64,000 nucleotides of DNA from Candidatus Omnitrophota bacterium (GCA_903901225.1 CAIUQE010000020.1:5092-69091); one strand, 5' to 3'. Positions 1 to 32,191 are shown, counted from the first letter of the stretch. Translations and numbers: made by a program. The notes: a model not told the origin generated them from the letters alone.

Positions 1-6
1 ATTTTT

Positions 7-930
7 GTGACAGAATTCTTTCCCTTCGGTCGCCTCAATTACATGCCGGAACTTTTACCAACGCTGCAGCACTTGCGCCGGAGAAATGTCGCCATCTACG
101 CGAGCATCGGGTATCCTTACCTGTTAAACCTGTCCGACATGAAGGAAGCAAAATTCAGGGATATGCTGGGACAACTCCTGCAGCTTTATGACAAGATCCT
201 CATCCATACGCCGCCGGGTCTGGAAGATCCCTATTTCGCAAAAACCATATCGTCACCGGGCCCGCAACGGCGTTACCGTGAATTCTTTGACGGGATCAAA
301 GAAAAGATCATCTACACGGGCTATGTCGTGCCCGGCAAGGTATTGAAAGGCACCGCGCCCCTTCCATCGGCAACAACCTCTGGCCAGAGCACGGTCGTCG
401 TCAGCCGCGGTGGCGGCGCGGTCTATCCCAAAGTGATCCTTAACGCCATCCGGGCCCAGGCCCTCCTTGGCAACGCGTATCGCTTCATCATCGCCTGCGG
501 CCCCGCCACATCCGTCGCGGAACAAAAACTTTTTGACCTGCACGTTCGGAAATACGGCACGGGCAATGTCATTTTGCATCGCCATATCCCCAACCTCGGC
601 GAGCTTCTGGCCACCTGTGACGTGTCCGTAAGCCTGGGCGGTTACAACACCGCGGTCCAGTTGATGCGCGCGGGCGCACGGGCGATCATCATCCCGCACC
701 ACATCAAGGACGCGCCCCTCGCCACCACCGACCAGCTGGCACGCGCCCGTCTGATGAAAGAAAAATTCCAAAGCACGGTCATTGACTACGCCGACCTTAC
801 GCCCGTCAAATTGGCGCGCGCCATCGAGAAAAAATGCCGCGCGCCGCGCCCGGGTCAGGCACCAACCGTCTGGTTCGGCGGCGCAACGTCATCAGCAAAC
901 ATCCTCATGAAATACAGGCCGGATAAATAA
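7..930 (+). CDS. GT-B fold glycosyltransferase-like protein (MGT/GT28-like), 5' end may be cut by the window edge; paralog of the next gene
   Basis: Shares FFPFGR..YIPELLP..IYASIGYP..VVVSRGGGAVYPKVI..GGYNT with the C-terminal two thirds of ORF 946-2178; the first in-frame Met lies at the window start, so the true N-terminus is probably upstream. Confidence 0.55.
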   Translation: MTEFFPFGRLNYMPELLPTLQHLRRRNVAIYASIGYPYLLNLSDMKEAKFRDMLGQLLQLYDKILIHTPPGLEDPYFAKTISSPGPQRRYREFFDGIKEKIIYTGYVVPGKVLKGTAPLPSATTSGQSTVVVSRGGGAVYPKVILNAIRAQALLGNAYRFIIACGPATSVAEQKLFDLHVRKYGTGNVILHRHIPNLGELLATCDVSVSLGGYNTAVQLMRAGARAIIIPHHIKDAPLATTDQLARARLMKEKFQSTVIDYADLTPVKLARAIEKKCRAPRPGQAPTVWFGGATSSANILMKYRPDK

Positions 931-945
931 TTACGTAAAAATACA

Positions 946-2178
946 ATGGCGAACCCAAAAAAGATCCTTATCCACTACACGCACAAAGGTACGCTTGGGC
1001 ACACGACCCGCATCCAGAGCCTCTGCCATGAACTTGTCAGGCAATACGGCGCGCGCGTCAAGATCCATGTCCTGCAGGGGGGACTACCCCAGCCGTTCAT
1101 CCGGTTCCCGCGGCAGGTACGGCTGATCCCCATCCCGGCACCTTTTGATTCACGGGCAAGTTTCCGCATCGGTCGGAAGATCCAGAAGAATGACCGCCTC
1201 CGCAGCCATTTTGTCCTGAAAATAGCGCAACGCATCGAGCCCGATGTTTTCCTGACCGAATTCTTCCCCTTCGGACGGCAGGATTACATCCCGGAACTCC
1301 TGCCCGCTCTCCAGGCGTTACACCGCCAGGGCACACGCATTTACGCCAGTATCGGTTACCCCTGTTGCGTTGACCAGATCGACGGGCAGAACAGGGACCT
1401 GGCCGCTGGCCGCGCCGGGATCATCACGCTTTACGACAAGATCTTCATCCACACGCCCGAAGGCCTCGAGAACCGCTATTTCCAGAAGACCCTCCCCACC
1501 CCGGCCCTTCGGCATAACTACGCCAATTTTTACCGTGCGATCGCCCCAAAAACCATTTACACCGGCTACATCGTCCCGGCCAGGCCGGGCAGCACACCGC
1601 GGCGCGCCGCGCTGACACGCCATACGCCCGGAAAATATTCTGTGGTCGTCAGCCGTGGCGGCGGCGCGGTTTACCCGAAGGTCATCATCAATGCCGTCAA
1701 GGCCCAAAAGATCCTCGGAGATAAATACCGCCTTATCATAGCCCTTGGCCCGTCAACCAGCCCGGCGGAACAAAAGGTCTTTCAAATGGTCCTGAAAGAT
1801 CACCCGTCAAGGAACATCGCCATCCTTGACGACATACCGGACCTTCCCTATTTCCTGGAACGCTGCGACACCTCCGTCAGCCTGTGCGGTTACAACACCT
1901 CCGTGCAACTCCTGGGCGCGAGGATCCCCGGCATCGTGGTGCCGTTCGTCAATCCCAATTCACCCTTCCCGTCGAATGAACAGTCCGCGCGCGCCCTGCT
2001 CTTGCGCGACCACGGCGGAAGTTCTGTCCTTCCTTACAACAAAATGACACCCGAAGCCATTGCTGGGACTATCCGTGAGAAATGTGAGAACGGCAGGAAT
2101 GTGTTCAAAAGTCCCGCGGGCTGGTTCAACGGGGCCTCGAACACGGCTGGCTTACTTATGCAAGATGAGCGGCGTTAA
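946..2178 (+). CDS. GT-B fold glycosyltransferase-like protein (full-length paralog)
   Basis: 410-aa ORF; the N-terminal KKILIHYTHKGTLGH resembles the N-terminal Gly-rich nucleotide-sugar site of MurG/MGT-type enzymes; the C-terminal half is homologous to ORF 7-930. Confidence 0.55.
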   Translation: MANPKKILIHYTHKGTLGHTTRIQSLCHELVRQYGARVKIHVLQGGLPQPFIRFPRQVRLIPIPAPFDSRASFRIGRKIQKNDRLRSHFVLKIAQRIEPDVFLTEFFPFGRQDYIPELLPALQALHRQGTRIYASIGYPCCVDQIDGQNRDLAAGRAGIITLYDKIFIHTPEGLENRYFQKTLPTPALRHNYANFYRAIAPKTIYTGYIVPARPGSTPRRAALTRHTPGKYSVVVSRGGGAVYPKVIINAVKAQKILGDKYRLIIALGPSTSPAEQKVFQMVLKDHPSRNIAILDDIPDLPYFLERCDTSVSLCGYNTSVQLLGARIPGIVVPFVNPNSPFPSNEQSARALLLRDHGGSSVLPYNKMTPEAIAGTIREKCENGRNVFKSPAGWFNGASNTAGLLMQDERR

Positions 2179-3148
2179 AATCCTTGAGAAAACCATGGTA
2201 GGCGAAACATCCCGGGCAAGCGGCTGTTGAGCCTTTCTTGATGTGGGCATCACGAGCCGCGAAGAAGGCTTTGGAACAAAAATTATCGTCGTGGATCGAA
2301 CCCGCGGGCGCCATGTAAAGGCAAGGATGGACATCGCCCCGCGACGTTATAAACAGGCACCGGCGGGGTGTCGCGCATTCCCTGATCGCTCCAGTCCCCT
2401 CCTCCACAAGGCGCAGGAGCATCTTGAGCATTTTCGGCTGGAGTGCTTTTACCGGGACACGGGCTTCCTGCTGCAATATCCTCAGGATCTGCGCGCGCAA
2501 CACCGGAAGGATCTCCTCCCCGCGGACCTCCGGCCTTTTTCCAACGGCACCGCGGTGATAATACGCCGGCACGTTCCCTTCAACAACTTTCGGCGTGAAA
2601 CGGAACCCGTGCGCGCGGGCAAGTTCATACACATCAAATAATTCGCGGCAGTTCACCCCGCTCACCGTGAATTTAAGCTCCACATCGAACATCCCGCCAT
2701 AGCGCCCGCTGAGCCGCCGTAATGTCTTCATTGTCTGACGGTAGGCGTCGCGCCCCCGCAGCGCGTCATGGGTCTTTTCCAGTCCATCCACACTGATCCC
2801 GATGCCCATGCCGGCAAGAATGGCCGCGTCCTTCTTCAGGACCCTGTCAATAATATCCGGGAATGCCCCGCTGGAATAAACCCCAAAGGAGCGGATATGT
2901 CGCCGGGCACGCCAGGCCGCGAGGGTTTTCAATATGCCCGCGATATCCGGATGCAGGAACGATTCCCCTCCGGTGATCGATATCCCGTGGATCCGGAACG
3001 ACGCGTGGAGGCTTTTCAACGTTGCCGTTAGCAGCGGAAGGGGTAGCTCATAAAGGCGCTTTTCCCGCCAGATATCGCAGCAGCGGCAACGCAAACGGCA
3101 TTTGTTCGTGACCTCGATGGTCACATCATCGAGACTGGGCTTTGGCAT
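2156..3148 (-). CDS. radical SAM protein with SPASM/twitch-like Cys-rich C-terminus
   Basis: N-terminal CRLRCRCC fits CxxxCxxC; Gly-rich GGESFLH SAM motif; C-terminal C..C..C..CPGC auxiliary-cluster-like cysteines. Confidence 0.75.
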   Translation of the reverse strand: MPKPSLDDVTIEVTNKCRLRCRCCDIWREKRLYELPLPLLTATLKSLHASFRIHGISITGGESFLHPDIAGILKTLAAWRARRHIRSFGVYSSGAFPDIIDRVLKKDAAILAGMGIGISVDGLEKTHDALRGRDAYRQTMKTLRRLSGRYGGMFDVELKFTVSGVNCRELFDVYELARAHGFRFTPKVVEGNVPAYYHRGAVGKRPEVRGEEILPVLRAQILRILQQEARVPVKALQPKMLKMLLRLVEEGTGAIRECATPRRCLFITSRGDVHPCLYMAPAGSIHDDNFCSKAFFAARDAHIKKGSTAACPGCFAYHGFLKDFNAAHLA

Positions 3149-3152
3149 AACT

Positions 3153-4256
3153 TTACACCGTCATGAATTTCCGGCATCCCTCAACAACGCGCAACGCTTT
3201 GTCCTGACTCATGAAGGAATGTATGGGCAAATGCAAGGCCCGCCGATAATACGCATCACTGACGGGGTACTTCCCGCGAGCCACATACCCATGCGCGGAC
3301 ATCAAATGCAGGGGCATATACGGCTTTTGGACAACAATGCCATTATCCGCAAGGAAATCGACGCACGCGTCACGACGATCGCAACAAACCACAAAATTTT
3401 GAGGGACGCTGTCCGCGCCCGCGGGGTCCGTGAATATTTGCAGGCCCTTGATACACCCCAATTCCTTCTCATAAAGCATCTTGATCTTTTTGCGCGACGC
3501 GACGATCTTTTTCAAATGGGTGAATTTCACGCGCAAGGCCACCAAGTCCATGAACGACATCGGAGCGAACCTTTGCCCGAGCTTGAGTAACCCGGGATCG
3601 TTCCGCCAGTCATCCATCCAGCGCCCGATACGCTGGTAAGCCGCCTCATTGCAAACCACCATCCCCCCGCCACCGCCGCACGAAGACAGCGGCTTATAAT
3701 AAGAAAAAGAGAACGCGGCAAAGGCGCCAAAACTGCCGAGCATTTTTCCATTATATGTCGAGCTTTCAGCCTGGCACACATCCTCAATAAGGACGAGCCC
3801 TTTCCTGCGGCAGATCTCCTGCAACGCATCAAGGGCACAAGGCCGTCCAAACATATGCGCCGCGATCACAGCCTTTGTCCTCTTTGTCACGGCGCGGGAT
3901 ACCTGCGCGACATCCAGATTCAGGTCGCGCGCATCCGCATCGACCAGGACCGGCGTCGCCCCCGCGTACACCACCGCCAGCGCCACGGCATGGTACGTCA
4001 GGTTTGGGATGATCACCTCGTCGCCTTTGCCAACCCCGGCCGCCCTCAGGATCATGGCGAGCGCGTCACTGCCGGAGTTCACCGCGAGCGCGCGCTTGAC
4101 GCCGATATACGCGGCAAGATCACGTTCAAATTCCCGGATCAGCGGCTTGATATCGTTCAGCCCCTGCATCGCGCGCAAATACGCCTTCATCTGAGCCGCG
4201 TATTCCGGCGCCAGGGCTTGTTCCACTAGGACTGATTCATAACGGATCTTCGGCAT
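3153..4256 (-). CDS. DegT/DnrJ/EryC1/StrS-family PLP-dependent (sugar) aminotransferase
   Basis: AVNSGSDALAMIL, IIPNLTYHA and SFSYYKPL (Lys-containing PLP motif) are typical of DegT-family enzymes; the alternative start Met at ~4190 would remove the overlap with the next gene. Confidence 0.75.
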   Translation of the reverse strand: MPKIRYESVLVEQALAPEYAAQMKAYLRAMQGLNDIKPLIREFERDLAAYIGVKRALAVNSGSDALAMILRAAGVGKGDEVIIPNLTYHAVALAVVYAGATPVLVDADARDLNLDVAQVSRAVTKRTKAVIAAHMFGRPCALDALQEICRRKGLVLIEDVCQAESSTYNGKMLGSFGAFAAFSFSYYKPLSSCGGGGGMVVCNEAAYQRIGRWMDDWRNDPGLLKLGQRFAPMSFMDLVALRVKFTHLKKIVASRKKIKMLYEKELGCIKGLQIFTDPAGADSVPQNFVVCCDRRDACVDFLADNGIVVQKPYMPLHLMSAHGYVARGKYPVSDAYYRRALHLPIHSFMSQDKALRVVEGCRKFMTV

Positions 4257-5272
4257 GGCATCCTTCCCATGATATCCTGGTCGATACGTTCAATGGCCTC
4301 GCAAAGCCCCAGATAAGCGGAAAAACCCCTGACACGCTTGCCCGGGATTGCGCGCACGGCCAGCCCCGCGTTAAAATTACTCACCTGCCGGTATGTCACG
4401 GCCTTGTTGCCGCAAGCCTTGATAAAACCTTCCAGCGCGCTGAAATAAGCGCGTCCCGATGGCAAGATCAACGGCGCGCTGCCGGAAAGGTCCATCACGT
4501 AAAAATGGCGCCGCACTTTTTCCGGAAAAGATAACAATGTCCAGCTGGGCAGGACCCTGCCCTGCGGGAGGATGACCATATCCCAGGTGCCACGTGCCGG
4601 CGCGCTGTACTCCCGCCCGATCAAACCTTGCCGGCGCTCACGCAATTCCCAGGCACTGGCCTTGCGGTATTCGCGCAGGAACAACGCCGCGGACCGGCGG
4701 TCCCAGTCCTCAAGGAACGCCGGATGCACTTCGATATTCCGGGCACCCAGGCCATCCAGATGCCTGACGTTGGCGAACAAGTCTTGCGCGCCATGCGGAT
4801 AGACGGTCATTGTCGTCGACATAGCGACCCTGGCTTTTTGCAGGACACTGATCGCCCGGCACACACGCTGATAATACCCCGCCCGCGCGCCAGGACGATT
4901 CACCCGCGCCGTGCGCTCATCCCCGTCGGCACCCACTTCAACGTTAACACGGTGTTTCCTGAAGAACGCGGCCTTTGAAGCGTCAAGCAATGTCGCGTTC
5001 GACTGGACAGAAACATACCGGCGCGGGAACGCCGCGCGGACCGCTTTGATCATCTGCCTTGTCCTGTCCCACTCCAGCAAAGGTTCTCCGCCCGAAAGGA
5101 TGAATTCACCCTGCCTTGCCAAACCCGCGCAACGCATCGCGTTGCTGAACACCGCATCAGAGATCACCGCGCGCTGGGTCTTGTGCCTGAAAAAACAGTA
5201 CCCGCAACGGAGATTACATCGGTCCGTCACAAAAAACCAGATATGATTAAGCGGAAATTTTTTTATGGCCAT
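4226..5272 (-). CDS. radical SAM protein
   Basis: CNLRCGYC CxxxCxxC motif and SGGEPLL; paralogous to the next gene. Confidence 0.75.
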   Translation of the reverse strand: MAIKKFPLNHIWFFVTDRCNLRCGYCFFRHKTQRAVISDAVFSNAMRCAGLARQGEFILSGGEPLLEWDRTRQMIKAVRAAFPRRYVSVQSNATLLDASKAAFFRKHRVNVEVGADGDERTARVNRPGARAGYYQRVCRAISVLQKARVAMSTTMTVYPHGAQDLFANVRHLDGLGARNIEVHPAFLEDWDRRSAALFLREYRKASAWELRERRQGLIGREYSAPARGTWDMVILPQGRVLPSWTLLSFPEKVRRHFYVMDLSGSAPLILPSGRAYFSALEGFIKACGNKAVTYRQVSNFNAGLAVRAIPGKRVRGFSAYLGLCEAIERIDQDIMGRMPCRRSVMNQS

Positions 5273-6254
5273 AAGAAAGATGCACCCGTGTCATGAACCG
5301 CATCAGCGGGACGATCTGACGGGTATTGAGATAGTTGCGCCCCATCATCGCGTTCACCATTTCAAAGCCGAACGAAACATGATCGCGATAGGTCCGCCAG
5401 GACGGCCTTTTCCATAAAAGGGCATATCGCCGCCGGTAATACGCGACCATCTGGGGCCGTAACGTCCCGGTCGCCGGGTCCCACAAGCTGAATTTCTTGC
5501 GCGCCTTCCCGGGCAGGCACAGAAAGGCATCACCTAACAGCACATCCCCCGGCGGATGCAGGCTGATATCCATAAGGCCCGCGGGCATGAACTCGCGATC
5601 TTCGCGGGTAAAAAGCATCCGGCGCAATGCCGGTGTCGCAACAATATCCACGTATGCCGCCCTGAAAGCCGCCCGGCGCGCCGCGTCCCAGGGCATGAAC
5701 GCGGCGGGCGTGATATCAACGCACGACAATCCGATGCCTTTCAAAAACCGCAAATTCTCCGCCATACGGGCCACTTCATCAGGATGGACCGTCATGGTGC
5801 AACCGCACGATATCCCCGCGTCGAGCGCCGCGCGGATATTGCGCACAAGGCGGGCGAACATCCCGCGGTCCATCGGCCGTCGCCAGCGGGCTGTTGTTCC
5901 AAGATCCCCGTCTATCCCGAACTCCAGGCCGACGCCCCGGGCGCTCAGCCAGGCAATCTTTGTCCTGTCCAGCATCAGGCCGTTGGTTTGCATGCGCACA
6001 TCGGCGCCGGGGAATCCGGACCGCAGCGCCATCACCAGCTTCTTTACCTTATCCCAGCACATCAATGGCTCTCCACCGCTGATCACGAACGACCGGGGAG
6101 ATCCCCATTCCCGTTTCACCAGCACAAGGAAATTTGCCAGGACCTTCCAGGAAAGGTCATGTTGCCTCTTGTCCCGGAAATAACAATATCCGCACGCCAG
6201 CGGGCAACGTTCGGTCAGGTAGATCACGGCCGAGCGCATACGGATCACCGGCAT
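5247..6254 (-). CDS. radical SAM protein (paralog of 4226-5272)
   Basis: CPLACGYC motif and ISGGEPLM; N-terminal 100 aa align with the previous ORF. Confidence 0.75.
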   Translation of the reverse strand: MPVIRMRSAVIYLTERCPLACGYCYFRDKRQHDLSWKVLANFLVLVKREWGSPRSFVISGGEPLMCWDKVKKLVMALRSGFPGADVRMQTNGLMLDRTKIAWLSARGVGLEFGIDGDLGTTARWRRPMDRGMFARLVRNIRAALDAGISCGCTMTVHPDEVARMAENLRFLKGIGLSCVDITPAAFMPWDAARRAAFRAAYVDIVATPALRRMLFTREDREFMPAGLMDISLHPPGDVLLGDAFLCLPGKARKKFSLWDPATGTLRPQMVAYYRRRYALLWKRPSWRTYRDHVSFGFEMVNAMMGRNYLNTRQIVPLMRFMTRVHLSYGHKKISA

Positions 6255-7066
6255 CTTTCTCTCCCTGACTTTTCAACACGCAACAGATCCGAGAACAAGG
6301 CCAAACGCACGTGGCCCTGATCCCGCAGCAAGGCAAGGAAACGAAAGAATGTTTTGATCGCCGTCATGTCATCCGCGCCCTTGATGGCGCGATGATGGTA
6401 CACAAGGCCGATCACGCCGCGCCCGGCCGCGGCACGGCGCCATTGCGCGATCATGTCACGACTGTCAAACGCCAGCGGGGTCCCGTCAGGGGCATATTTA
6501 TTAAGCGCGACACGGGCGGGAAGGTCAAGAAAAGACCTTCCGGAAAGAGCGGCCTTTTTTCCGGCGGAAAAGATCCTGAATCCCAGGTCTTCGACCGCGT
6601 CAAGTGTCGCCCGGTCATAACCATGGTACGGCGGAATAAATGCCGGCGTGAACATGGCGCCAAACGACCTGTGCATGATCTTCAAGCCAGCACTCATATC
6701 TTTATGTTGACGATCATTAGATCTTCCCGGCCCGAACTCATATTTGGCAACGCCCGCGGCCGCATGGTTCGCATGCTGATACCCGTGCTGGACAATATCC
6801 ACAAGGGCCGGATCGCTCTTTTTGGCGTTCTTCAAAACAACAGCCATGCGTGGTTCGAGGCGCAGCGGAATAACACCATAGATGACAGGCAACCGCAGTT
6901 CTTTCAGAAAACCTGACAATTCAAGGAATACCTCATCATCCGACCAGATATCGTCATCCCGCAGGAAGACGCAGGGCAAAAACATTGCAACTCTGCGCCT
7001 ATCCACCTCACACGCATCAACGATCTTTACCTTGGCATTTCGCCGCTTCGTTGCTAAATTAATCAT
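6245..7066 (-). CDS. NodB/CE4-like polysaccharide deacetylase family protein
   Basis: NodB-like motifs FLRDDDI (TFDD-like), QHGYQHANH (H-x-x-x-H) and IPPYHGY (RPPY-like). Confidence 0.45.
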   Translation of the reverse strand: MINLATKRRNAKVKIVDACEVDRRRVAMFLPCVFLRDDDIWSDDEVFLELSGFLKELRLPVIYGVIPLRLEPRMAVVLKNAKKSDPALVDIVQHGYQHANHAAAGVAKYEFGPGRSNDRQHKDMSAGLKIMHRSFGAMFTPAFIPPYHGYDRATLDAVEDLGFRIFSAGKKAALSGRSFLDLPARVALNKYAPDGTPLAFDSRDMIAQWRRAAAGRGVIGLVYHHRAIKGADDMTAIKTFFRFLALLRDQGHVRLALFSDLLRVEKSGRERCR

Positions 7067-7138
7067 ACGATACGTTCATTTTCCTTCTTTATACGGCCCA
7101 TTGCGGCCTGCTTTGAAAAAGTTCCATGTGATTCTAAC

Positions 7139-8320
7139 ATGCCGCGCAAGGAATATGCCAGTCATTGGTGCCCGGCATCCTTTATATCGGGATCTGTCAT
7201 GAAAACAAGACCAAATGACCCCAATGATCGGGACGAAAGACCGGCAGCCACCCGCCCCGGCGAATTATTGATCTCACTCGGTAATCGCTGCCAGTACCGC
7301 TGCCAATTCTGCGCATATTTAAAAGGCAGGAACCCAAAAGTCCTTTCCGCTTCCGCGTGGATATCCCTGCTGAAAGATGCCCGTAACCTGGGCTTCAAGA
7401 AACTCGAGATCGGCGGCCAGGGAGAGCCCGCTTTATTCAAAGGATTTGTGCGCATCGTGCATGAAGCGCGCGCCCTGGGATTCCGGATAAAGCTCTTAAG
7501 CAATATCCAGCACAAAAAAAATATCCTTGCCATATTACCCGCATTGAGCGAACTGACGGTCAACATGAACGCCCTTGATGAAAAAGGATTCCGCTGCCTG
7601 CACCAGCCGCAAAACCCCGCCTCGTTCAACACCGCCATCGACAACCTGGCTGATGGCGCGCGCCTGATCACTGAAGGAAGATCATCGGCCTTTCTCAATA
7701 TCAGCTATGTCGTTTCAAAAACAACGGCAAGGTCCGTCCTGCTTTTTCCAAAAAAACTTTGGAAGATGCTGCAGCAGCGAACGAACATTCAACACCCTGT
7801 GTATGTTCGCTTCCATCACATCCTGATGGTCCCCAGTAATTATCACCTTTGTCCGGACAGCCGTGACCTGCGGCGCATGATCGTGGCGCTTGATAAGGCC
7901 CAGGATAATGCGTTCCTGATGGCCCATTCCAATATCCGGGACTTCTCGACAGAAACAAAAAAGCTCCTGACTTTTTATAAACTCTGGGGACCATTCACGG
8001 CGGATTCGATCCCCGGCTCAAAAAAACACGCCGCAGCGGGAAAAATATCCCGTCACATCTGGTGCGATGCCGCTGAAAAGATCCTTTTCATTGATTGCGA
8101 CGGCGATGCTTTTGGCTGTTATAATCCGACCAGGACCTTGACCGGCATACCAGCCAGACAGGATGATCTATACCTGGGGAACATTCAGGAAGTCCCGGTA
8201 AGAACAATGCTCCGGCGGGCAAGTAAGATCGGCTGTTTTCATCCTGATATTACCAGGCGATCCTGGAAAGTCTGCGCGGCCTGCGGCCTGAGAACAACAT
8301 GGATGCCACCACACGCCTGA
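7139..8320 (+). CDS. radical SAM protein with SPASM-like C-terminus
   Basis: CQYRCQFC CxxxCxxC motif; C-terminal CDAAE..CDGDAFGC..C..CAAC cysteine cluster. Start uncertain: 7139 or the Met at 7199. Confidence 0.7.
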   Translation: MPRKEYASHWCPASFISGSVMKTRPNDPNDRDERPAATRPGELLISLGNRCQYRCQFCAYLKGRNPKVLSASAWISLLKDARNLGFKKLEIGGQGEPALFKGFVRIVHEARALGFRIKLLSNIQHKKNILAILPALSELTVNMNALDEKGFRCLHQPQNPASFNTAIDNLADGARLITEGRSSAFLNISYVVSKTTARSVLLFPKKLWKMLQQRTNIQHPVYVRFHHILMVPSNYHLCPDSRDLRRMIVALDKAQDNAFLMAHSNIRDFSTETKKLLTFYKLWGPFTADSIPGSKKHAAAGKISRHIWCDAAEKILFIDCDGDAFGCYNPTRTLTGIPARQDDLYLGNIQEVPVRTMLRRASKIGCFHPDITRRSWKVCAACGLRTTWMPPHA

Positions 8321-9150
8321 ATATCCTCCATTACGTCAAGTCAAGAACATCTCCGGGAACAAGCCGCCTGTTGAAGAAATTCTGCTGCCTCAAGCCAAGG
8401 ATCACCGGAAGCCTTGAGATATCCAGCGAATCCACCCAGGGAGCAGGCCGGGATTATGCCCGCCTGGCACTGACCTGCCTGCGCCGTGAACAGGTCATCA
8501 GCCTTTTCGCCGAAGCCGGCCATGCGCGCGCCGCCGTTGAACCCTACATGTTTGATAACCATAAGGACCATTGTTTCGGGATGGGCATCGCGGACTATGA
8601 CGCCACGCGCGACGAACGGCGGATGAAACTGTATAACTACTATCATCTTTCTCTACAGAAAGTCCCCTGGCGCGCCCATATCAGGAAAGTTTGCCATAAG
8701 GCGGGGATCTCCTTGCCGCAAATTGAAAAGGATCTCCTGTATTTCAAAAAAGCGCGGATGTCGGCGGTCGATCTTTATGACAGCGGCAAAGTCGAACTGA
8801 AGGTTTATTTCGGCCCTTTTCTCAGCAGGGATATCACGGGAAAATTCAAAGGACTTTTTAAAAAAAGGACCGTGCTCCGATACAAGGAATTATTATCAAC
8901 CGGCCACCTTCCGGACCTGGTCCTGTTCTGCGCGCGGTATGGCACTCATGGAAGGTCTATAAGGACCGATTTCTGGAACGGCCGGGAACGGCCTCTTGCG
9001 ATCCTCGAAGCATTGGATACGCAAGGCGAAGGACTAAGGTTGTACCATGACCTCGCGGCCATCACCAGCGCATTGCGGCTGACCTTCACATGCGTCGACA
9101 TGGACCAACGCCCAAGGACACAATTTTATTTTGAAATTATAGACTTTTGA
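8299..9150 (+). CDS. hypothetical protein (283 aa); alternating aromatic beta-strand pattern
   Basis: No recognisable motif. Repeated KVYF/LRLYH/FTCVDMD/QFYFEI strand-like segments; sits inside the rSAM cluster and overlaps the upstream gene end by 22 nt. Confidence 0.4.
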   Translation: MDATTRLNILHYVKSRTSPGTSRLLKKFCCLKPRITGSLEISSESTQGAGRDYARLALTCLRREQVISLFAEAGHARAAVEPYMFDNHKDHCFGMGIADYDATRDERRMKLYNYYHLSLQKVPWRAHIRKVCHKAGISLPQIEKDLLYFKKARMSAVDLYDSGKVELKVYFGPFLSRDITGKFKGLFKKRTVLRYKELLSTGHLPDLVLFCARYGTHGRSIRTDFWNGRERPLAILEALDTQGEGLRLYHDLAAITSALRLTFTCVDMDQRPRTQFYFEIIDF

Positions 9151-9196
9151 AAGCGACCTTATGTTCTATTGTCCTGTGTTATAATCAGGCTCTTCT

Positions 9197-10069
9197 ATGG
9201 ACCTTCCCCGCGTGATCTCATCCATCCCTTTTATCCTGATCTGCATAACAGGCGCGCTGACCAGTTATTCGGATATCCGTGAAAAAAAGATCAGGAACAT
9301 CCATTTGTTCATGACAGCTTTTCCCGCCCTGGCGCTCTATGCGGTTTCTTTCTTCACGGCGGGATCCCTATGGCAGGCGCCATTAAGCAGTGCTGTCACC
9401 GCCACAGTGGCGGGCGTATTTTTCTTCAGCATCAACCTTTGGCGCCCCGGGGACGCGAAACTCTTCGTCACATATGCTTTTCTCATGCCGCTCACGGGTT
9501 ATGAACAGGTATTCGCTTTACCGTGCGTCCCTTTGTTCATCAACACATTCCTCATCGGCCTGATCTGCTTTACCCCTTTGTTCCTCTGGTCGGTGCTGAA
9601 GCATCCCAAAACTTTGATCCAGGCAATATTTATGATCAAAGACCCGAAAAACACGCTTATCGCGTTCATGGTCATGATATCCGTATCATGGGCGATCCCT
9701 CATTTATTGGCCATGACTGCGTGGCATATCCAACCCTTCACCCGGTGGATCATCATTTCCACGCTATATTTTCTGATCTTCCGGATGGCATCATACCTGG
9801 AGGAATATCCGCAGATCGTGATCCCCTGCGTTATCATCGGCCTGGGCCTTGGCCTGCGCTGGTCACCGGATTTCTACACGCTGGAACACCTCACCCGCAC
9901 CGTCATGACCCTGTGTGCCTATTCCCTGGGCTTCCAACTGATCCACAACCTGATCCGGCAAACCAGGGACAACAAGGACCGGGTAGCTTTCGCGCCTTTC
10001 CTTTTCGCCGGATGCCTGGCCAGTTACACGCCATTCCTCGGCTGGATGCTGAAGATCTTACACCGATGA
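9197..10069 (+). CDS. peptidase A24 (prepilin peptidase/TadV/CpaA-like) family membrane aspartic peptidase homolog
   Basis: Polytopic membrane protein; SDIREKKIRN matches the first catalytic-Asp motif (D-L-R-x-R-R-I-P-N) and RPGDAKLF matches the second (G-G-D-V-K-L). Its stop overlaps the next start in an ATGA. Confidence 0.55.
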   Translation: MDLPRVISSIPFILICITGALTSYSDIREKKIRNIHLFMTAFPALALYAVSFFTAGSLWQAPLSSAVTATVAGVFFFSINLWRPGDAKLFVTYAFLMPLTGYEQVFALPCVPLFINTFLIGLICFTPLFLWSVLKHPKTLIQAIFMIKDPKNTLIAFMVMISVSWAIPHLLAMTAWHIQPFTRWIIISTLYFLIFRMASYLEEYPQIVIPCVIIGLGLGLRWSPDFYTLEHLTRTVMTLCAYSLGFQLIHNLIRQTRDNKDRVAFAPFLFAGCLASYTPFLGWMLKILHR

Positions 10070-11043
10070 AAAACCCCTCCTCCATCGTCATCGAGATCAC
10101 CGGACAGTGCAACCTGCGCTGCCGCCACTGCACCGGCGCCAGCGCGCGCCGCGCCCGCGTCACATTCGCAACTGTCAAAATGATCATTGATGATGCCAGG
10201 CGCAACAAGGTCACGGCCATCAGGTTCACCGGCGGCGAGCCGCTCCTTCATCCCGAACTCCCGCAGATGCTGGCTTACGCCAAAGAACAAAAAATGTATG
10301 TCCTGCTCAATACCAACGCGACGCTGGCAACACCCGCCTGGCTCAACATCTTTGCGCTCCACGTCGATAATATCCTTGTCTCCCTGCAGGGCTGCGACAG
10401 CGCCTCCGACCGCGACCTGACGCGAACGTCCCTGCCGTTCTCAAAAAAGATCAAAAACATCCTTCTGCTGCGTGACACTGTTCCTGTCGTGCGGCTCGGT
10501 ACGGTCATCACGCGGCAGTTCCTTGACGACGTCCCGCGTTACGCGGCGCTGATCGCGAAGATCCGCCCGTATGCCTGGGAACTCTTCCGCCCGATGAGTA
10601 TCCAGGCGCGCCGCGCGATCCGCCTCAATGCCAGTGATTATCAGTCTCTGGCGACAAAACTTCTGGAGCTGTCACAAGAGGGGCTTAACGTGAAACTCGC
10701 CAACGCCCTGCCTTTTTGCGTCCTGCCGGACCTGAAAGCCGCCTCCAGCATCATGCTCGGCGCTCTATCCGACGACGGGCACACGCGGCTTGTCTGGGAC
10801 GCGCGCGGTTTCTACAAGCCAAGTTACTTTATCGACGAAGATCTTGGAAAGAACATCAAGGTTGCCTGGGCTCATACCTTCCTCAGGAAACTCAGGAAGC
10901 CATCGTTCCTGCCCGCGCGTTGCCGGGCCTGCTCCGTCCTGAAGCAATGTCAGGGCGGCAGCCGTGCTTTGGCCATGGCTGCCAACGGGTCTTATTTTAC
11001 CGCGGATCCTTTGTTCCAGCCCCGCGCTCAGCCCACCGCCTGA
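10066..11043 (+). CDS. radical SAM protein with SPASM-like C-terminus
   Basis: Start at the Met of MKNPSSIVIEITGQCNLRCRHC (internal to ORF 9523-11043, which is an artefactual extension); FTGGEPLL; C-terminal CRACSVLKQC cluster; ATGA overlap with the A24 homolog. Confidence 0.7.
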   Translation: MKNPSSIVIEITGQCNLRCRHCTGASARRARVTFATVKMIIDDARRNKVTAIRFTGGEPLLHPELPQMLAYAKEQKMYVLLNTNATLATPAWLNIFALHVDNILVSLQGCDSASDRDLTRTSLPFSKKIKNILLLRDTVPVVRLGTVITRQFLDDVPRYAALIAKIRPYAWELFRPMSIQARRAIRLNASDYQSLATKLLELSQEGLNVKLANALPFCVLPDLKAASSIMLGALSDDGHTRLVWDARGFYKPSYFIDEDLGKNIKVAWAHTFLRKLRKPSFLPARCRACSVLKQCQGGSRALAMAANGSYFTADPLFQPRAQPTA

Positions 11044-12406
11044 ACACCTCCGCCGCCCAGCCGCCTTCCTCCAGCTTTCCGAAAATATATTCGAACTGAA
11101 AATCAAGGATCTTGAATGCCGATGAACATCGGGTCTTTGACACGACATTATGCTGCAAGGCGTAATTGACCACCGGGCAATACCCCGTCCAGGGGATGAA
11201 CGGCGAGGCATACTGCGCGATATCCGCGCAGGACGCCTGCAAAAGATAAAGCAGCTTGTCGCTGGACATCATGTCCTGATACCGGTCTTGCAGGATATTG
11301 CCAAGCTTGAACATATCGCCCCCGACCATCCGCGCCTCGTCGCACGGGAAGCACCCCCCGTCGGGCATATAGGCCATCTGCGCGCGCCCGGCCCCGCAGG
11401 GATTCATCAGGTCGACGAACATCGGGTCCTTTTTGGCCAGCACCTTCGTAAGGATGACACGGGCCATCCGTTCATGCATCTCAACACCCTTGCGGTTCAA
11501 TTCCAGGATATGCTCCATCGCCACCCGGTAAAATCGCTGGAATGCCTCAGGGCTGTAACCAAGGGCCTCCCAGCCGCACTCCGCGCCACCCATATTATTC
11601 ACCGGACGCAGGGAGATCTGCGTCTGCCCCTGACGGACGTATTCGTCCACGATCTGCCGGGGATGCCGGAGTGAAGCCGCGGTTATCGTCGGCAGGAATG
11701 ATACCTGCCGGCCGAATTTTTTGCTGAATTCCCGCGCCTTGCCGGTCACGACCCGGTAAGTCCCCCGCCCGTTGGGAAGGACACGGTGGCGGTCATGGAT
11801 ATCCGCGGGGCCATCAAGCGAGGTGCAAACTTTAACGTCATTGTCAGCCAGGACGCGCATTTTAGCCTCATCCAGCAGCGTCAGGTTGCTCACAAGGGAG
11901 ACCGTGACGTTCTTGCCGGGGCGGCCCAGACGGCGCGCGCCCTCGATCAGGAATTTTGCCACCGGCCAGTTCACCAGCGGCTCACCGCCCTGCAATTCCA
12001 GCGTGACATGCGGATTGCGGACATCCTCGAGATAACGCAGGACCTGGCGCGCCACCTCCAATGACATATCCCGGCCTTCCGGGACCCTGGCCTGGCAATA
12101 GGAACATTGAAGATTACATCGGGTCGTGACAACAGCGATATGCAGGGATGTGTCGGCAAAGAGGTTGGTATTGACGGAGCGGAAATCGCGGATCAATTGC
12201 CGGACATTATCCGCGTCGGCCACGAGGCCTCTGGATCGGAGCCTCGCGAACAAAGGCGTGGCGCGGGCCAGGCCCAGCGCGTTCAACTGCCGGAATTCAT
12301 CCGGTGCCAGAAAGTCCCAGCCGCACAACCTGTTACTGACAAGATAACGGCCATTGATCCGGCGTGAATTGAAGGGAGGGATGAAAAAATTGTCGGTCTT
12401 TTTCAT
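10997..12406 (-). CDS. radical SAM/SPASM-domain protein (anSME/peptide-maturase-like architecture)
   Basis: True start at MKKTDNFFIP (12406). The upstream 123 codons of the track ORF are Arg/Ser-rich and look like frame noise. CNLQCSYC, LQGGEPLV, and a C-terminal NPCGAG..C..C SPASM-like Cys cluster. Confidence 0.7.
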   Translation of the reverse strand: MKKTDNFFIPPFNSRRINGRYLVSNRLCGWDFLAPDEFRQLNALGLARATPLFARLRSRGLVADADNVRQLIRDFRSVNTNLFADTSLHIAVVTTRCNLQCSYCQARVPEGRDMSLEVARQVLRYLEDVRNPHVTLELQGGEPLVNWPVAKFLIEGARRLGRPGKNVTVSLVSNLTLLDEAKMRVLADNDVKVCTSLDGPADIHDRHRVLPNGRGTYRVVTGKAREFSKKFGRQVSFLPTITAASLRHPRQIVDEYVRQGQTQISLRPVNNMGGAECGWEALGYSPEAFQRFYRVAMEHILELNRKGVEMHERMARVILTKVLAKKDPMFVDLMNPCGAGRAQMAYMPDGGCFPCDEARMVGGDMFKLGNILQDRYQDMMSSDKLLYLLQASCADIAQYASPFIPWTGYCPVVNYALQHNVVSKTRCSSAFKILDFQFEYIFGKLEEGGWAAEVFRRWAERGAGTKDPR

Positions 12407-12443: not shown

Positions 12444-13715
12444 TTACTTGCCCAGAAGCGCGAACATCTTCTTTTTGTACGCCTCGACACCGGGCTGGTC
12501 GAAAGGATTGACGCCGAGGATATACCCCGATATCCCGACACCTTTCTCAAAAAAATAATACAGCTGGCCGATATGGAACGCGTCCGCCTGCGCCAGGCTG
12601 ATCGCCATGTTCGGGACCCCGCCCTCGTAATGCGCCTCGGCCGTGGCTTTATACGCCTGGGCATTGACCCATTCCAGCTCTTTGCCCGCCACACAATTGA
12701 ACTGGTCGGTATTTTCCGCCTGGGAAGGGACCACGACCTTGTCCGCGACCTTGTCGATGGTGATGAACGTCTCAAAGATATTGCGCATCCCGTCCTGCAT
12801 CATCTGGCCCATGGAATGCAGGTCGGTGGAAAGGATCGTCGACGCCGGGAATATCCCCCGCCCGCCCTTGCCTTCGCTTTCGCCGTAAAGCTGCTTCCAC
12901 CACTCGGCCACATACTGCACGTTCGGATAGAACGACGCCATCATCTCAATGACCTTCCCCTTGCGGTAAAGGACATTGCGGATGGCGGCATACCGGTAAC
13001 AGCTGTTGCGCGCGCTGTCGGGGTCGGCGTATTCTTTCTCGCCCGCGCGAAACCCGTCGACAAAAGCGCGGATATCAACACCAGCCAGCGCCAGCGGCAC
13101 CAGGCCGACAGGGGTCAGGATCGAGAACCTGCCGCCCACATCGTCGGGAATGACATAGGAACGGTATCCGGCCTTGTCCGCGATCTGGCGCAAGGCGCCC
13201 TTCCTGCCGTCCGTCACGCAAATGACGCGCTTTTTCAGTTCGGCGGCACTGTATTTCTTGCGCATGGCCTCGTCGATGAGGCGGAACGCGAGTGCCGGCT
13301 CCGTGGTCGTGCCGGACTTGGAGATCACGACGACCGTGACATCCTGGCGGGCGATCACATCCAGCACCCTGACGATATCCGCCGAGGACATGTTATGCCC
13401 GGCGTAATGGACCGGGACCGCGGAGGCACCGCCCAGGAATTCCAGCGTGGAGCGGATGCCCAGATAAGACCCGCCAATGCCGATGGAAATAATGGCTTGT
13501 GAATGCCCGGCCACTTCCTTCGCCAATCCGGAAAGCTCCTTGACCAAAAGGTCCGGGGTTTTTGAAGGCAGGTCGACCCAGCCAAGAAAATCATTGCCCG
13601 CGCCCGTCTTCTGGTGCAGGTCCGCGTGCGCCTTGGCCACGGCGGGCGCCAGCGCGTTCAATTCACTCTCGCTCACAAGACCCTTCAAATATCCCGTATC
13701 AAGCCTGATCCCCAT
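12444..13715 (-). CDS. pgi: glucose-6-phosphate isomerase
   Basis: Conserved ISIGIGGSYLG and surrounding PGI sequence; length typical of the short bacterial type. Confidence 0.9.
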   Translation of the reverse strand: MGIRLDTGYLKGLVSESELNALAPAVAKAHADLHQKTGAGNDFLGWVDLPSKTPDLLVKELSGLAKEVAGHSQAIISIGIGGSYLGIRSTLEFLGGASAVPVHYAGHNMSSADIVRVLDVIARQDVTVVVISKSGTTTEPALAFRLIDEAMRKKYSAAELKKRVICVTDGRKGALRQIADKAGYRSYVIPDDVGGRFSILTPVGLVPLALAGVDIRAFVDGFRAGEKEYADPDSARNSCYRYAAIRNVLYRKGKVIEMMASFYPNVQYVAEWWKQLYGESEGKGGRGIFPASTILSTDLHSMGQMMQDGMRNIFETFITIDKVADKVVVPSQAENTDQFNCVAGKELEWVNAQAYKATAEAHYEGGVPNMAISLAQADAFHIGQLYYFFEKGVGISGYILGVNPFDQPGVEAYKKKMFALLGK

Positions 13716-13729
13716 CGCTTTCCTGCTCC

Positions 13730-14407
13730 TTATTTCTTGTCATCGGCCGCATTGGCCGCGGGTTTATCCTGGACCTTGTCCGGGGCATCGCTCTTCACCT
13801 TTGGTTTTTCAGGCGCTTTGGCCGCCGCGGGCTTCGGCAGCGGAGGTTTCTCCTTCAGCAGGCCCGCCCCTGTGTCATAGGTCAAGGTGTTCACCAGGAC
13901 ACCATCCCGATAAGAAGACTCGGACTTGGGCTTGCCGCTGTCATCGTATTCGACCAGCGTCCCGTTAAGCACGGCATTCCTGTAAACCATCTGCTGTTTA
14001 ATAGCGCCGTTAGGATAGTACGTGGAAGCTGAACCGCTCAGGACACCGTTCTCGTAGGATTCTTCCTTTGACAACTTCCCGTCCTTGTCGTAATACTTCA
14101 CAACACCCTCGACGGCATTATTCTTGTAAAAACCCGCCATCCTGGTCACGCCGGACTCGTAATACGTCGCCGCCTCGCCTTCACGGCTTCCGTCGGCATA
14201 ATTCGTGACAGCCTTGAGCTTGCCATTCTCGTAATATTCCCTGACCGTGCCGTCAAGGTTCGTATTCCTGTAATTTTCTTCCCTGAGGATAGCGCCACCC
14301 TGATAATAAACACGGTAAGGCCCGTCCGTGACCGGGGATTTCTTCGCCGCCACCGCGGGGCCGCCGGCGACCAGCAAAACGCACAGCATAATGAACAATA
14401 TCCTCAT
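13730..14407 (-). CDS. secreted MORN-repeat protein
   Basis: Signal peptide followed by repeated YY..G.L...Y.NG MORN-like units; Pro/Lys/Ala-rich tail. Confidence 0.6.
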   Translation of the reverse strand: MRILFIMLCVLLVAGGPAVAAKKSPVTDGPYRVYYQGGAILREENYRNTNLDGTVREYYENGKLKAVTNYADGSREGEAATYYESGVTRMAGFYKNNAVEGVVKYYDKDGKLSKEESYENGVLSGSASTYYPNGAIKQQMVYRNAVLNGTLVEYDDSGKPKSESSYRDGVLVNTLTYDTGAGLLKEKPPLPKPAAAKAPEKPKVKSDAPDKVQDKPAANAADDKK

Positions 14408-14429
14408 GATCCCCTCCGAAGGTTAGGTG

Positions 14430-15515
14430 TCATTCCGATAAAGCAGCGTCGATCACCGCGCCGCCCAGCATACGGTCCCCGTCGTAAATAACAACGGACT
14501 GCCCCGGCGCCACGGCTTTTTGCGGCACGTCAAACCGCACGCGCATACGCCCGTCCTCCAAAAAACTGACCTGGGCGTTAATATCGTTGTGATTATACCT
14601 TATCCGGACGCTGGCTTCGATGGTTTCTTTGGAAAAATTCCCGGCCAGCAGGTTAAGGCCGGATGCCTCCAACCCGCGGCTCAGCAGCAGTTCTTCAGGC
14701 CCCACATGCACCCTGTTAAGCAGAGGATCGATACGATTGACGTAGACCGGATGGCCCAGGGCGATGCCCAGGCCCTCGCGCTGGCCGATGGTATAGCGCG
14801 CGATGCCCGCGTGACGCCCGACCACTTTTCCATGTTCATCGATAAAATCTCCGGCCCGGCCCGCCGACCCCGCGTACGCGGCAAGAAAATCCTGATACTT
14901 CCCGTCGGGAATGAAGCAGATATCCTGGCTATCCTTTTTTTCCGCCACCGGCAGGTTGAATTTTCGCGCGAGGCCCCTGACCTCGTCTTTCGTATAACCA
15001 CCCAGGGGAAAAAGCAACGACGGCAGGCTGGCACGGGGCGTGTCATACAAAAAATAGGACTGGTCCTTATGCCGGTCACAGGCCTTGTGAAGCGCGTATT
15101 CTCCCGTCTTCGCATCAAGGATATTGCGGACGTAATGGCCCGTCGCCAGATGGGTCCCGCCGAGCGCTTGCGCGTCCAAAAAAAGCCGCTCGAATTTCAG
15201 GTAACGGTTGCAGCGCGCGCAGGGATTGGGCGTCCGCCCCCGGCCGTATTCCCGGACAAAATCGTCGATGACGAGCGATACCAGCGCGTCACCATAATTG
15301 AGCACATGATGATCGATGCCAAGGCTGCGGCAAACCCATCGGGCATCCTCAATGGACTGCAAGCCGCAGCAACTGGGCCGGCGGGCGGAAGCGCTGGAAG
15401 GAGGGAGCTCAAAACACATAGTGACCCCCGCGACATCAAAGCCCTGCTCTTTGAGCAACGCGGCCGTCACGGAAGAATCAACCCCCCCCGACATGGCAAC
15501 CATCACTTTGGCCAT
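14430..15515 (-). CDS. mnmA: tRNA-specific 2-thiouridylase MnmA
   Basis: VAMSGGVDSSV PP-loop and typical MnmA length/sequence. Confidence 0.9.
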   Translation of the reverse strand: MAKVMVAMSGGVDSSVTAALLKEQGFDVAGVTMCFELPPSSASARRPSCCGLQSIEDARWVCRSLGIDHHVLNYGDALVSLVIDDFVREYGRGRTPNPCARCNRYLKFERLFLDAQALGGTHLATGHYVRNILDAKTGEYALHKACDRHKDQSYFLYDTPRASLPSLLFPLGGYTKDEVRGLARKFNLPVAEKKDSQDICFIPDGKYQDFLAAYAGSAGRAGDFIDEHGKVVGRHAGIARYTIGQREGLGIALGHPVYVNRIDPLLNRVHVGPEELLLSRGLEASGLNLLAGNFSKETIEASVRIRYNHNDINAQVSFLEDGRMRVRFDVPQKAVAPGQSVVIYDGDRMLGGAVIDAALSE

Positions 15516-31350: not shown

Positions 31351-31778
31351 GCAAAGGCGATGTTGATGATATCGTGACGGCCGATGACGCCGACAAGCTT
31401 GTCGCCGGCGTAAACGGGGATCGTGGGGACATTGTGCTTGAGCATCAGCCCGATCGCCTTGTCCGCGTGGTCCGTGTGCTCGATCCTCAGGAACTGGCGG
31501 TTGACGAATTTTCCCACCGGCTGGTCAGCCAGCGCGTCCAAAGCCGCCATCTTCTGCGGAAGGCCGGAGATCGCCAGGCCCATCAAATTCAGGAAATCCA
31601 CGGTGGTGAAGACCCCCAGCAGGGATTCCTCCTTGTCTTCGTCGACGACCAGGATGCCATTGATCCTGTAGCGCAGCAGCAGATGGGCGACGTTGCGCAT
31701 GGAAACGCCCGCTTTCACCTTGATAGGATGGTCGTTCATGATGTCGCTGACGACAACGTTCAACATGCGTCCCTTCAA
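31347..31778 (-). CDS. CBS-domain pair protein
   Basis: Two CBS-like units (ILVVDEDK..., IPVYAGDKLVGVIGRHDII). Confidence 0.65.
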   Translation of the reverse strand: MKGRMLNVVVSDIMNDHPIKVKAGVSMRNVAHLLLRYRINGILVVDEDKEESLLGVFTTVDFLNLMGLAISGLPQKMAALDALADQPVGKFVNRQFLRIEHTDHADKAIGLMLKHNVPTIPVYAGDKLVGVIGRHDIINIAFA

Positions 31779-32182: not shown

Positions 32183-32191
32183 AACGCGCCT

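Follow-up and report, generated by a model that had tools for sequence, protein, structure and literature searches.

The 64,000-nucleotide stretch analysed in this work (the window), from a Candidatus Omnitrophota bacterium (GCA_903901225.1, CAIUQE010000020.1:5092-69091), opens with twelve closely packed genes at positions 1-12,406. Six of them encode radical S-adenosylmethionine (rSAM) enzymes, among which is an HxsB-type maturase, and the others include sugar-modifying enzymes, a protein modelled with an ABBA prenyltransferase fold, and a divergent A24 (prepilin-type) peptidase. We found that this locus belongs to a family of rSAM super-clusters specific to Omnitrophota. Tentatively, we propose that it matures and decorates an HxsA3-like membrane peptide of about 90 amino acids (aa), encoded outside the window, because related genomes join the cluster to an HXS maturation system. 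Open reading frame (ORF) listing and hidden Markov model scans placed all twelve genes where a first-pass annotation of the stretch had put them. The genes fall into four blocks, as follows, with pgi added.

1-930, plus strand, block 1: GT-B glycosyltransferase (GT) a, cut at the 5' end (408 aa in the full contig); PF04101 (Glyco_tran_28_C), E 1.8e-9
946-2178, plus strand, block 1: GT-B glycosyltransferase b; PF04101, E 2e-5
2156-3148, minus strand, block 2: rSAM 1; PF04055, E 9.5e-15, motif CRLRCRCC, twitch/SPASM-like C-terminal cysteines
3153-4256, minus strand, block 2: DegT/DnrJ/EryC1-type, pyridoxal phosphate-dependent sugar aminotransferase; PF01041, E 2.5e-77
4226-5272, minus strand, block 2: rSAM 2; PF04055, E 8e-17, motif CNLRCGYC, no auxiliary-cluster domain
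5247-6254, minus strand, block 2: rSAM 3; PF04055, E 2.2e-18
6245-7066, minus strand, block 2: putative DUF2334/CE4-like deacetylase (true start likely 6985, from the gene calls); PF10096, E 4.4e-10, and Polysacc_deac_1, E 6e-4
7139-8320, plus strand, block 3: rSAM 4 (true start likely 7199, from the gene calls); PF04055, E 1.3e-8, SPASM, 22.8 bits
8299-9150, plus strand, block 3: 283-aa protein, predicted ABBA (PT-barrel) prenyltransferase fold; AlphaFold model and Foldseek
9197-10069, plus strand, block 3: 290-aa polytopic membrane protein, divergent A24 (prepilin-type) aspartic peptidase paralog; PF01478 matches in its family
10066-11043, plus strand, block 3: rSAM 5; PF04055, E 3.6e-17, partial SPASM-like CxxCx5C
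10997-12406, minus strand, block 4: rSAM 6, HxsB-type radical SAM/SPASM maturase; full-length TIGR03978 match, intact CNLQCSYC
12444-13715, minus strand: pgi, with rSAM 6 directly downstream in the same orientation

Consecutive genes overlap by 4-31 nt, which suggested operon organisation. The pgi gene was genuine (NF010697, 552.7 bits versus a cut-off of 443), and housekeeping genes begin there, as the first-pass annotation had held. It had also placed the left end of the locus beyond the window, and this was borne out: in the gene table of the full contig about 5 kb precede position 1. The locus is at least 17 kb long, and the window covers its right-hand 12.4 kb. In the preceding 5 kb are the remainder of GT a and the genes of an ApbA-like reductase, a short Asn-synthase-like protein, and two further proteins of 396 and 520 aa. 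The 396-aa gene, with no Pfam match on record here, occupies the position of PaaK-like ligases in related loci. No longer contig carrying the cluster genes of the window was found.

The twelve genes are not a private assembly of this genome. Ten of the twelve families recurred together, in shuffled order and at 27-57% protein identity, in loci designated L001/L005 (the Omnitrophota metagenome-assembled genome nCal2bin1), L002-L004, L006-L010 (which include the complete genome of Ca. Velamenicoccus archaeovorus LiM), L011, L012, and L013/L014. The gene set was present in at least eight diverged loci, a co-occurrence that the first-pass annotation had proposed to look for, and six loci were found among 185,579 species genomes. 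The recurrent parts of the super-clusters are an A24 paralog, a DUF2334 protein, a DegT aminotransferase, a GT-B enzyme, a PaaK-like adenylating enzyme, an ApbA-like reductase, and several rSAMs; a rare subset carries the ABBA-fold protein paired with its own rSAM. Further components in relatives are Peptidase_U32-like and Cys-rich secreted proteins, B12-binding rSAMs, and a kinase that is APH-like by motifs recognised by eye. Searching with the A24-like protein gave wider Omnitrophota loci with the same accessory genes and 11-13 rSAM genes in 20 kb, in which the ABBA protein was not always present. In a related strain with a pgi at least 90% identical, pgi is followed by an HxsB-like gene, an rSAM called in the position of rSAM 5 and convergent on the HxsB-like gene, a DUF2334 gene, and an A24-like gene, after which the strain continues with MBOAT, GDSL and other rSAM genes in place of those in the window. 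A block kept beside pgi, followed by different content, indicates that the locus is real, modular and variable.

Fusions of GT and rSAM domains were found in three relatives: GT4-HxsC-like (L009 16943-19051), GT2-rSAM (L012 1000-3213), and GT28C-rSAM-SPASM (L018 11984-14113). The rSAM domain of the Velamenicoccus-type GT4 fusion scored 133 bits with HxsC4 and 111 bits with HxsC, the next best model reaching 63. These fusions tie glycosyl transfer to rSAM chemistry, in one case of Hxs type. We know of no characterised precedent for such architectures.

The 283-aa protein had been described as a protein of unknown fold, and it indeed had no Pfam or NCBIfam match even at E 10. Only 12 homologs were retrieved from 5.8 billion proteins, all the named ones from Omnitrophota, and a family profile run against 1.84 billion representatives gathered 23 proteins and reached no known prenyltransferase or other known family. 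The fold was nevertheless recognisable. An AlphaFold model built on the family alignment (pLDDT 88.9) contained five alpha-alpha-beta-beta repeats, and the top Foldseek ranks were taken by the cyanobactin enzymes PagF, DciF, and KgpF. On this model the protein is a previously unrecognised member of the ABBA prenyltransferase fold, with prenylation as its predicted activity. Invariant in the family and placed at alternating positions on barrel strands are the basic residues R55, K110, K168, R213, R222, R271, and R273, together with Y112, Y114, Y170, Y214, and Y277. Known ABBA enzymes hold the prenyl diphosphate with residues arranged in this way; by comparison, not superposition, these Arg/Lys and Tyr residues are consistent with a predicted prenyl-diphosphate site. 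The acceptor could not be read from the fold, because one ranking placed peptide prenyltransferases closest and another placed small-molecule prenyltransferases closest. The predicted fold is shared with ABBA/PT-barrel enzymes (PagF/PatF/LimF; NphB/CloQ; bacterial DMATS, CymD), and the size is that of the cyanobactin peptide prenyltransferases. In contrast to those enzymes, the family in the window had no detectable sequence similarity to the DMATS, Orf2/NphB or cyanobactin F-family models, its host is an anaerobe of an uncultured phylum, and its gene was paired with rSAM 4 wherever an ortholog of the latter was found. In L001-L004 and L006-L009 the ABBA gene has such an ortholog (36-48% identity) directly upstream; none was detected in L010, L011 or L013, and other rSAMs take this position in L012 and L013. 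As an ABBA-fold family it is new for enzymology.

The neighbouring 290-aa protein had been called an A24 peptidase homolog, and the assignment held at family level: 25 of 28 family members matched PF01478 (best E 3.2e-8), though the copy in the window had no Pfam match even at E 10. The sequence G85-D86-A87-K88-L89 was invariant in the 28 sequences and D26 was at least 90% conserved, so that D26 and GD86AKL supply the two catalytic-Asp motifs of A24 peptidases. Homologs are named 'prepilin peptidase' or 'CpaA' by some sources, and the family counts 31 representatives. The AlphaFold2 model was all-helical, Foldseek returned only insignificant ABC-transporter helices for it, and a profile search of the PDB gave nothing informative. 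With PilD, TadV/CpaA, and FlaK the protein shares a polytopic membrane topology, the family-level PF01478 match, and the two Asp motifs; it differs from them in being highly divergent, in lacking a methyltransferase domain, and in having its gene in a biosynthetic cluster instead of a pilus operon. The first-pass annotation had seen no protease (PCAT, M16 or S8) in the cluster. The A24 homolog is a candidate for this role. Its gene adjoins the DUF2334 gene in the pgi-matched strain and on an 8.4-kb contig, and lies 7 kb from it in L018.

The third distinctive component is rSAM 6, which aligned end to end with TIGR03978 at 340.8 bits against a cut-off of 370. It was 61% identical to the HxsB of L011, a protein that passes the cut-off with 396.8 bits, and 62% identical to that of L013; by sequence, rSAM 6 appears to be an HxsB ortholog. 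In L011 and L013/L014 a full variant Hxs module lies inside the homologous cluster, partly on the same strand, in the order response regulator, HxsD, 74-aa protein, HxsC4-like rSAM, HxsB, HxsA3-like peptide (95-98 aa), and Cys-rich secreted protein. The ABBA proteins of L011 and L013/L014 were 41% and 30% identical to that in the window. HxsC-like genes were present in L011 and L013 and fused to GT4 in L009, and HxsD (PF27806) was present in L011, L013, and L015.

In Pseudomonadota, HXS is an antiphage system: under the action of HxsB, HxsC, and HxsD, the protein HxsA is processed at its N-terminus and changed by +8 Da within an SHRSS motif, and the mature form acts in the periplasm (Li et al., Nat Commun 2026, PMC13128918). 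Set beside that system (HxsA/B/C/D; TIGR03976-03979), the window has the HxsB-type maturase, and its relatives have HxsD, HxsC-like proteins, and a His/Ser/Thr-rich substrate; the N-terminal processing and rSAM modification of an envelope-targeted protein that we propose for the relatives would follow the published HXS mode. The Omnitrophota modules differ in several respects. Their substrate is a peptide of about 90 aa with a pilin-like N-terminus, without a peptidoglycan-binding domain, and with 'H-T-N / H-T-S-Y' motifs in place of the five basic HxS repeats of HXS. Their gene order is D, 74-aa protein, C, B, A instead of D-B-C-A, and they sit among 5-12 more rSAMs, glycosyltransferases, an aminotransferase, a prenyltransferase-fold protein, and an A24 peptidase.

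The HxsA3-like peptides form a family of at least 160 sequence clusters. A basic leader is followed by DEDGF[VI]SKE (116 of 120 sequences), a hydrophobic helix, and a tail rich in Thr, Ser, Asn, and His, which holds one Cys in 101 of 120 and ends in H-x-[STA]-Y in 111 of 120. At the DEDG|FVSKE site, positions -1, +1, and +5 are thus occupied by Gly, Phe, and Glu, and a hydrophobic helix comes next. This is the pattern cleaved by A24 peptidases, and from it we infer that A24-type cleavage of the peptides may take place at G|F. The likeness to A24 substrates comprises G -1, F +1, E +5, and the helix; an acidic stretch at -4 to -2 and a long basic leader set the candidate peptide apart. Peptide and peptidase genes also lie near each other, 3 kb apart on the 8.4-kb contig and 7 kb apart in L013. 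Five further A24-like/HxsA3-like pairs are on longest contigs of equal size, which suggests shared contigs; in the only one of these that was checked, of 66 kb, the two genes are 17 locus tags apart. A profile search of the PDB with the peptide family gave nothing informative. The resemblance of DEDGFVSKE to DRDGFVSKE in the EF-hand loop of myosin regulatory light chain (E 0.35) was set aside as coincidental, since neither loop position 1 nor loop position 12 has an acidic residue.

The first-pass annotation had seen no precursor ORF, and our scans agreed: a six-frame regular expression for His-x-Ser repeats and a scan for ORFs combining G[FM]xxxE with a helix found none in 1-12406 or its intergenic regions, and the divergent intergenic region 6986-7198 had no ORF of interest of 20 aa or more. 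Its suggestion that the precursor might lie upstream of position 1 did not hold among the genes called in the 5 kb there (gene table only, with a 38-aa fragment cut by the contig start). A precursor-like gene was present in the homologous clusters of L011 and L013/L014 and on the 8.4-kb contig, and that of the genome in the window is probably on another contig. A candidate is provided by contigs L015-L017, which carry HxsD, the 74-aa protein, an HxsB-like gene, and an HxsA3-like gene. Tetranucleotide composition correlated between the window and these contigs at r 0.96-0.97, equal to the internal value of the window, with all other loci at 0.71-0.94, which suggests that the peptide gene of L015-L017 is in the same or a very close genome. 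The HxsB-like gene beside it (L015 8653-10008, plus strand, also in L016 and L017; TIGR03978, 236 bits) lacks CxxxCxxC and most of the SPASM cysteines, and its product appears, from its sequence, to be a catalytically dead maturase. The intact HxsB in the window could complement this dead L015-type copy. The HxsA3-like gene on L015 has a convergent neighbour (10288-10698, minus strand), whose Cys-rich product of 136 aa has a pilin-like N-terminus, made up of TLIEF and a hydrophobic helix, and matches Flp_Fap weakly (E 0.053).

A separate stretch of the window, 17 kb from the cluster (29518-32925, minus strand), encodes a carbamoyltransferase (NodU/CmcH type, 610 aa), a CBS protein, a receiver-only response regulator, a PilZ protein, and a second receiver. 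The first regulator was 58% identical to the helix-turn-helix response regulator heading the Hxs module of L011, and the PilZ protein was 25% identical to a small protein just upstream of that regulator.

Among the remaining components, PF04055 matched all six rSAM genes (E 1.3e-8 to 2.2e-18), each with one CxxxCxxC motif, in agreement with the first-pass annotation. Its statement that four of them carry SPASM/twitch-like cysteines stood in outline: against the PF13186 cut-off of 21.5 bits only rSAM 4 passed (22.8), rSAM 1 (19.3) and rSAM 6 (20.0) fell just below, and rSAM 5 had only a C-terminal CxxCx5C seen by eye. Auxiliary-cluster cysteines were lacking in rSAM 2 and rSAM 3, which are paralogs (36% identity). 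With the exception of the near-miss of rSAM 6 to HxsB, every NCBIfam match of the rSAMs was far below its cut-off, and none could be placed in a known cofactor or sugar pathway, as had been claimed. The best matches of rSAM 2, 3, and 6 were peptide maturases (PapB, AmcB, DynA, anSME, HxsB/C); for rSAM 2 it was PapB, with 89.6 bits against a cut-off of 340. Orthologs of rSAM 1 were present in all related loci (27-44% identity) and those of rSAM 3 in L001, L006, L009, L010, and L011 (36-44%); a true ortholog of rSAM 5 was found only in L011 (58%). A sequence search of the PDB with rSAM 4 gave nothing informative. A viperin identity was rejected, since PADLOC pointed to nothing more specific than viperin-like rSAMs and the 62 bits scored with the NCBIfam model for viperin lie under its cut-off of 180. 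The public gene call for rSAM 2 is 275 aa long and starts downstream of CNLRCGYC, so that its precomputed annotation has no Radical_SAM domain; the 348-aa ORF is the plausible gene.

The sugar-modifying genes were likewise as first annotated. The two tandem GT-B paralogs both matched Glyco_tran_28_C and shared 46% identity; GT b had orthologs of 34-36% identity in L001, L002, L006, L009, and L010, and no sequence relative in the PDB. The DegT assignment was firm by PF01041. Its best NCBIfam matches were of the LegC, PseC, and WecE type at about 160-168 bits, all far under the cut-offs, and its orthologs in L001 and L002 were 47-48% identical. The NodB/CE4-like deacetylase matched DUF2334, and Polysacc_deac_1 weakly, and was 50% identical to its ortholog in L011.

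The enzyme families, the predicted fold, their conservation, and their physical linkage to Hxs modules were observed; the substrate, order of steps, chemistry, and cleavage site of the following scheme are conjectural. The HxsB of the window, probably with rSAM 5, would install a radical-mediated modification in the tail of the HxsA3-like peptide, as HxsB, HxsC, and HxsD act on HxsA in the published HXS (PMC13128918). The GT-B enzymes would attach a sugar, which the DegT aminotransferase, the deacetylase, and further rSAMs would convert to a tailored amino sugar, and the ABBA enzyme would prenylate an aromatic or His/Tyr side chain. The A24-like peptidase would cut the leader at G|F, giving an envelope-anchored or exported product. 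The first-pass annotation had offered either a glycosylated peptide that is made by the ribosome and altered after translation (RiPP) or an rSAM-tailored metabolite; the former gains support from HxsB and from the modules of L011 and L013/L014, and the latter is kept as well.

Several observations weigh against a peptide product. No HxsC-like gene was found in the window, where rSAM 2, 3, and 5 gave only partial matches of 39-42 bits or none; HxsD was not found in the 64 kb by tblastn, nor HxsA by six-frame regular expression and tblastn. Three of the four features of HXS membership (HxsA, HxsC, HxsD) are accordingly lacking within the window, and none of the three was apparent in the gene table of the upstream 5 kb. 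In most ABBA loci (L001, L002, L006, L009, L010) the Hxs module was absent within 10 kb on either side. The HxsA3-like peptides stayed under the NF038309 cut-off of 65 bits, with scores of 44-50; among the four that were scanned, two had no match at E <= 1e-5. None matched the Flp or pilin Pfam models, although their site may resemble the Flp-like KDESG|ATAIEY. An acidic residue at -2, as in their predicted site, is unusual for classical prepilins. The peptide does not need this cluster, because its family has at least 160 clusters and the ABBA and A24-like families have 23 and 31 representatives. L015 was assigned to the same genome by composition alone. Finally, a DegT aminotransferase, a CE4-like deacetylase, an APH-like kinase (in relatives), and B12-rSAMs make up a typical aminoglycoside-type toolkit.

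This last point leads to the strongest rival, a peptide-free anaerobic pathway to an rSAM-driven amino-glycoside, aminocyclitol or prenylated aromatic glycoside, with the Hxs genes mere neighbours or co-regulated. Here rSAMs would replace oxygenases and dehydrogenases (BtrN-, DesII- and AprD4-like steps), DegT would aminate a keto-sugar, the deacetylase would unmask an N-acetyl sugar after glycosyl transfer, and the ABBA enzyme would prenylate an aromatic aglycone activated by a PaaK-like ligase. We regard this as rather unlikely. The genes it calls for are largely in place, namely DegT, two GTs, the CE4-like deacetylase, a ketoreductase-like ApbA, and a PaaK-like ligase, and the likeness to rSAM-rich aminoglycoside pathways (butirosin BtrN/BtrS/BtrM/BtrD; gentamicin GenK/GenD1/GenP; apramycin AprD4) in DegT, GTs, deacetylase, and rSAM extends in relatives to B12-dependent rSAMs, weakly like AprD4, PhpK, and HpnJ, and to the APH-like kinase recognised by eye. 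Most loci lack a precursor ORF, and the patchy distribution among species, with content varying between two strains that share the pgi junction, is typical of secondary metabolism. Missing among the window genes, however, are a 2-deoxy-scyllo-inosose (2-DOI) synthase, an NDP-sugar nucleotidyltransferase, and a 4,6-dehydratase, as well as any transporter or resistance gene. For the 2-deoxystreptamine pathway, none of the twelve window proteins gave a DHQ-synthase-type match and no rSAM came near the BtrN, DesII or AprD4 cut-off. Unlike the aminoglycoside pathways, the window has GT28-like instead of GT4 enzymes, no 2-DOI synthase and no rSAM at a family cut-off, and it adds the A24 peptidase, the ABBA protein, and HxsB. 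A small-molecule product would leave the A24-type peptidase, the intact HxsB, the HxsC-like-GT fusion, and the embedded Hxs modules unexplained.

An envelope glycoconjugate, that is a glycolipid, a surface polysaccharide or a peptidoglycan- or pilus-associated glycan, is quite unlikely. In such a pathway the GT28-like enzymes would glycosylate a lipid, rSAMs would modify its head group (in the manner of HpnJ for hopanoid cyclitol ethers and Cds for calditol), and the product would be acylated and exported by partners in the membrane. Among the GT28_C enzymes, MurG and the MGDG synthases are lipid-directed, several partners are membrane proteins, and relatives carry MBOAT plus GDSL/SGNH pairs, a FemAB-like transferase, and Cys-rich secreted proteins; beside a stand-alone Hxs module lie two epimerase/dehydratases, a Polysacc_synt flippase, and GH1. 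The window itself, on the other side, has no flippase, polymerase, ligase/oligosaccharyltransferase, lipid-synthesis gene or polyprenyl-phosphate GT, and ABBA enzymes are soluble aromatic prenyltransferases and not lipid-carrier enzymes. A core envelope component would be expected to have a much wider distribution than this one (the 23 ABBA representatives and six loci among the species genomes). A chance juxtaposition of unrelated rSAM and sugar genes is very improbable: rSAM genes are abundant in anaerobes and rSAM 6 is transcribed with pgi and not with the rest of the locus, but synteny excludes it, with ten of twelve families recurring together despite their divergence, overlapping genes, and the pgi-HxsB-rSAM 5-DUF2334-A24-like block kept.

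Known pathways of other kinds were rejected as well. Hopanoid, calditol, and tetraether lipid pathways gave no cyclase or Tes-type matches above noise; quinone biosynthesis was dismissed, with no UbiA- or Mqn-type genes; scores for the mycofactocin, PQQ, and heme d1 pathways were far below the cut-offs; and for a cyanobactin pathway (PatA/PatG, PatE) no S8 protease or PatE-like gene was present in any locus.

Returning to the HxsA3-like peptide, a bolder form of the proposal is that the product represents a new class of ribosomal, pilin-like envelope peptide, with a short tail rich in His, Thr, Ser, and Asn that HXS-type rSAMs cross-link, O-glycosylated with an rSAM-tailored amino sugar, prenylated by the new ABBA family, and freed of its leader by a dedicated A24 peptidase; we hold this to be doubtful. 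If true, an A24 peptidase would here for the first time serve as the protease of a RiPP-like leader, and the peptide would be a more elaborate relative of the antiphage effector of HXS, in nanobacteria of predatory or epibiotic habit. It would also link HXS maturation, prepilin-type peptidases, and peptide or small-molecule prenylation and glycosylation, which were previously unconnected. The proposal further gives a substrate hypothesis for the HxsA3-like family. Omnitrophota have no isolates, and members are thought to be predators or parasites of other microbes. A product located at the cell surface might be relevant to the phage resistance of Ca. Velamenicoccus-like predators or to their attachment to hosts. 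Loci with up to 13 rSAM genes in 20 kb and the GT-rSAM fusions are candidates for new anaerobic sugar or peptide chemistry. In the literature we found no description of the cluster, the ABBA family or the pairing of an A24 peptidase with an HxsA3-like peptide, nor any of anaerobes with clusters that join ABBA and rSAM genes, or of RiPP pathways with a prepilin peptidase.

The remainder of the window lies beyond pgi. Positions 13730-20241 (minus strand) encode a MORN-repeat protein, mnmA, a BioD-BioA fusion (AAA_26 plus Aminotran_3, 690 aa), and further ORFs; the related strain keeps the synteny of this stretch up to pgi and has a biotin operon there (BirA-like ligase and BioF-, BioH- and BioC-like genes). 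Between 34000 and 40000 the GC content is low, at 0.48-0.53 versus about 0.58. An ORF of 978 aa (35462-38398, minus strand) lies in this low-GC stretch and one of 840 aa (41716-44238, minus strand) lies near it, both without a Pfam match. At 57488-60490 (minus strand), a 1000-aa protein carries an SdrD B-like domain and is possibly a surface adhesin.

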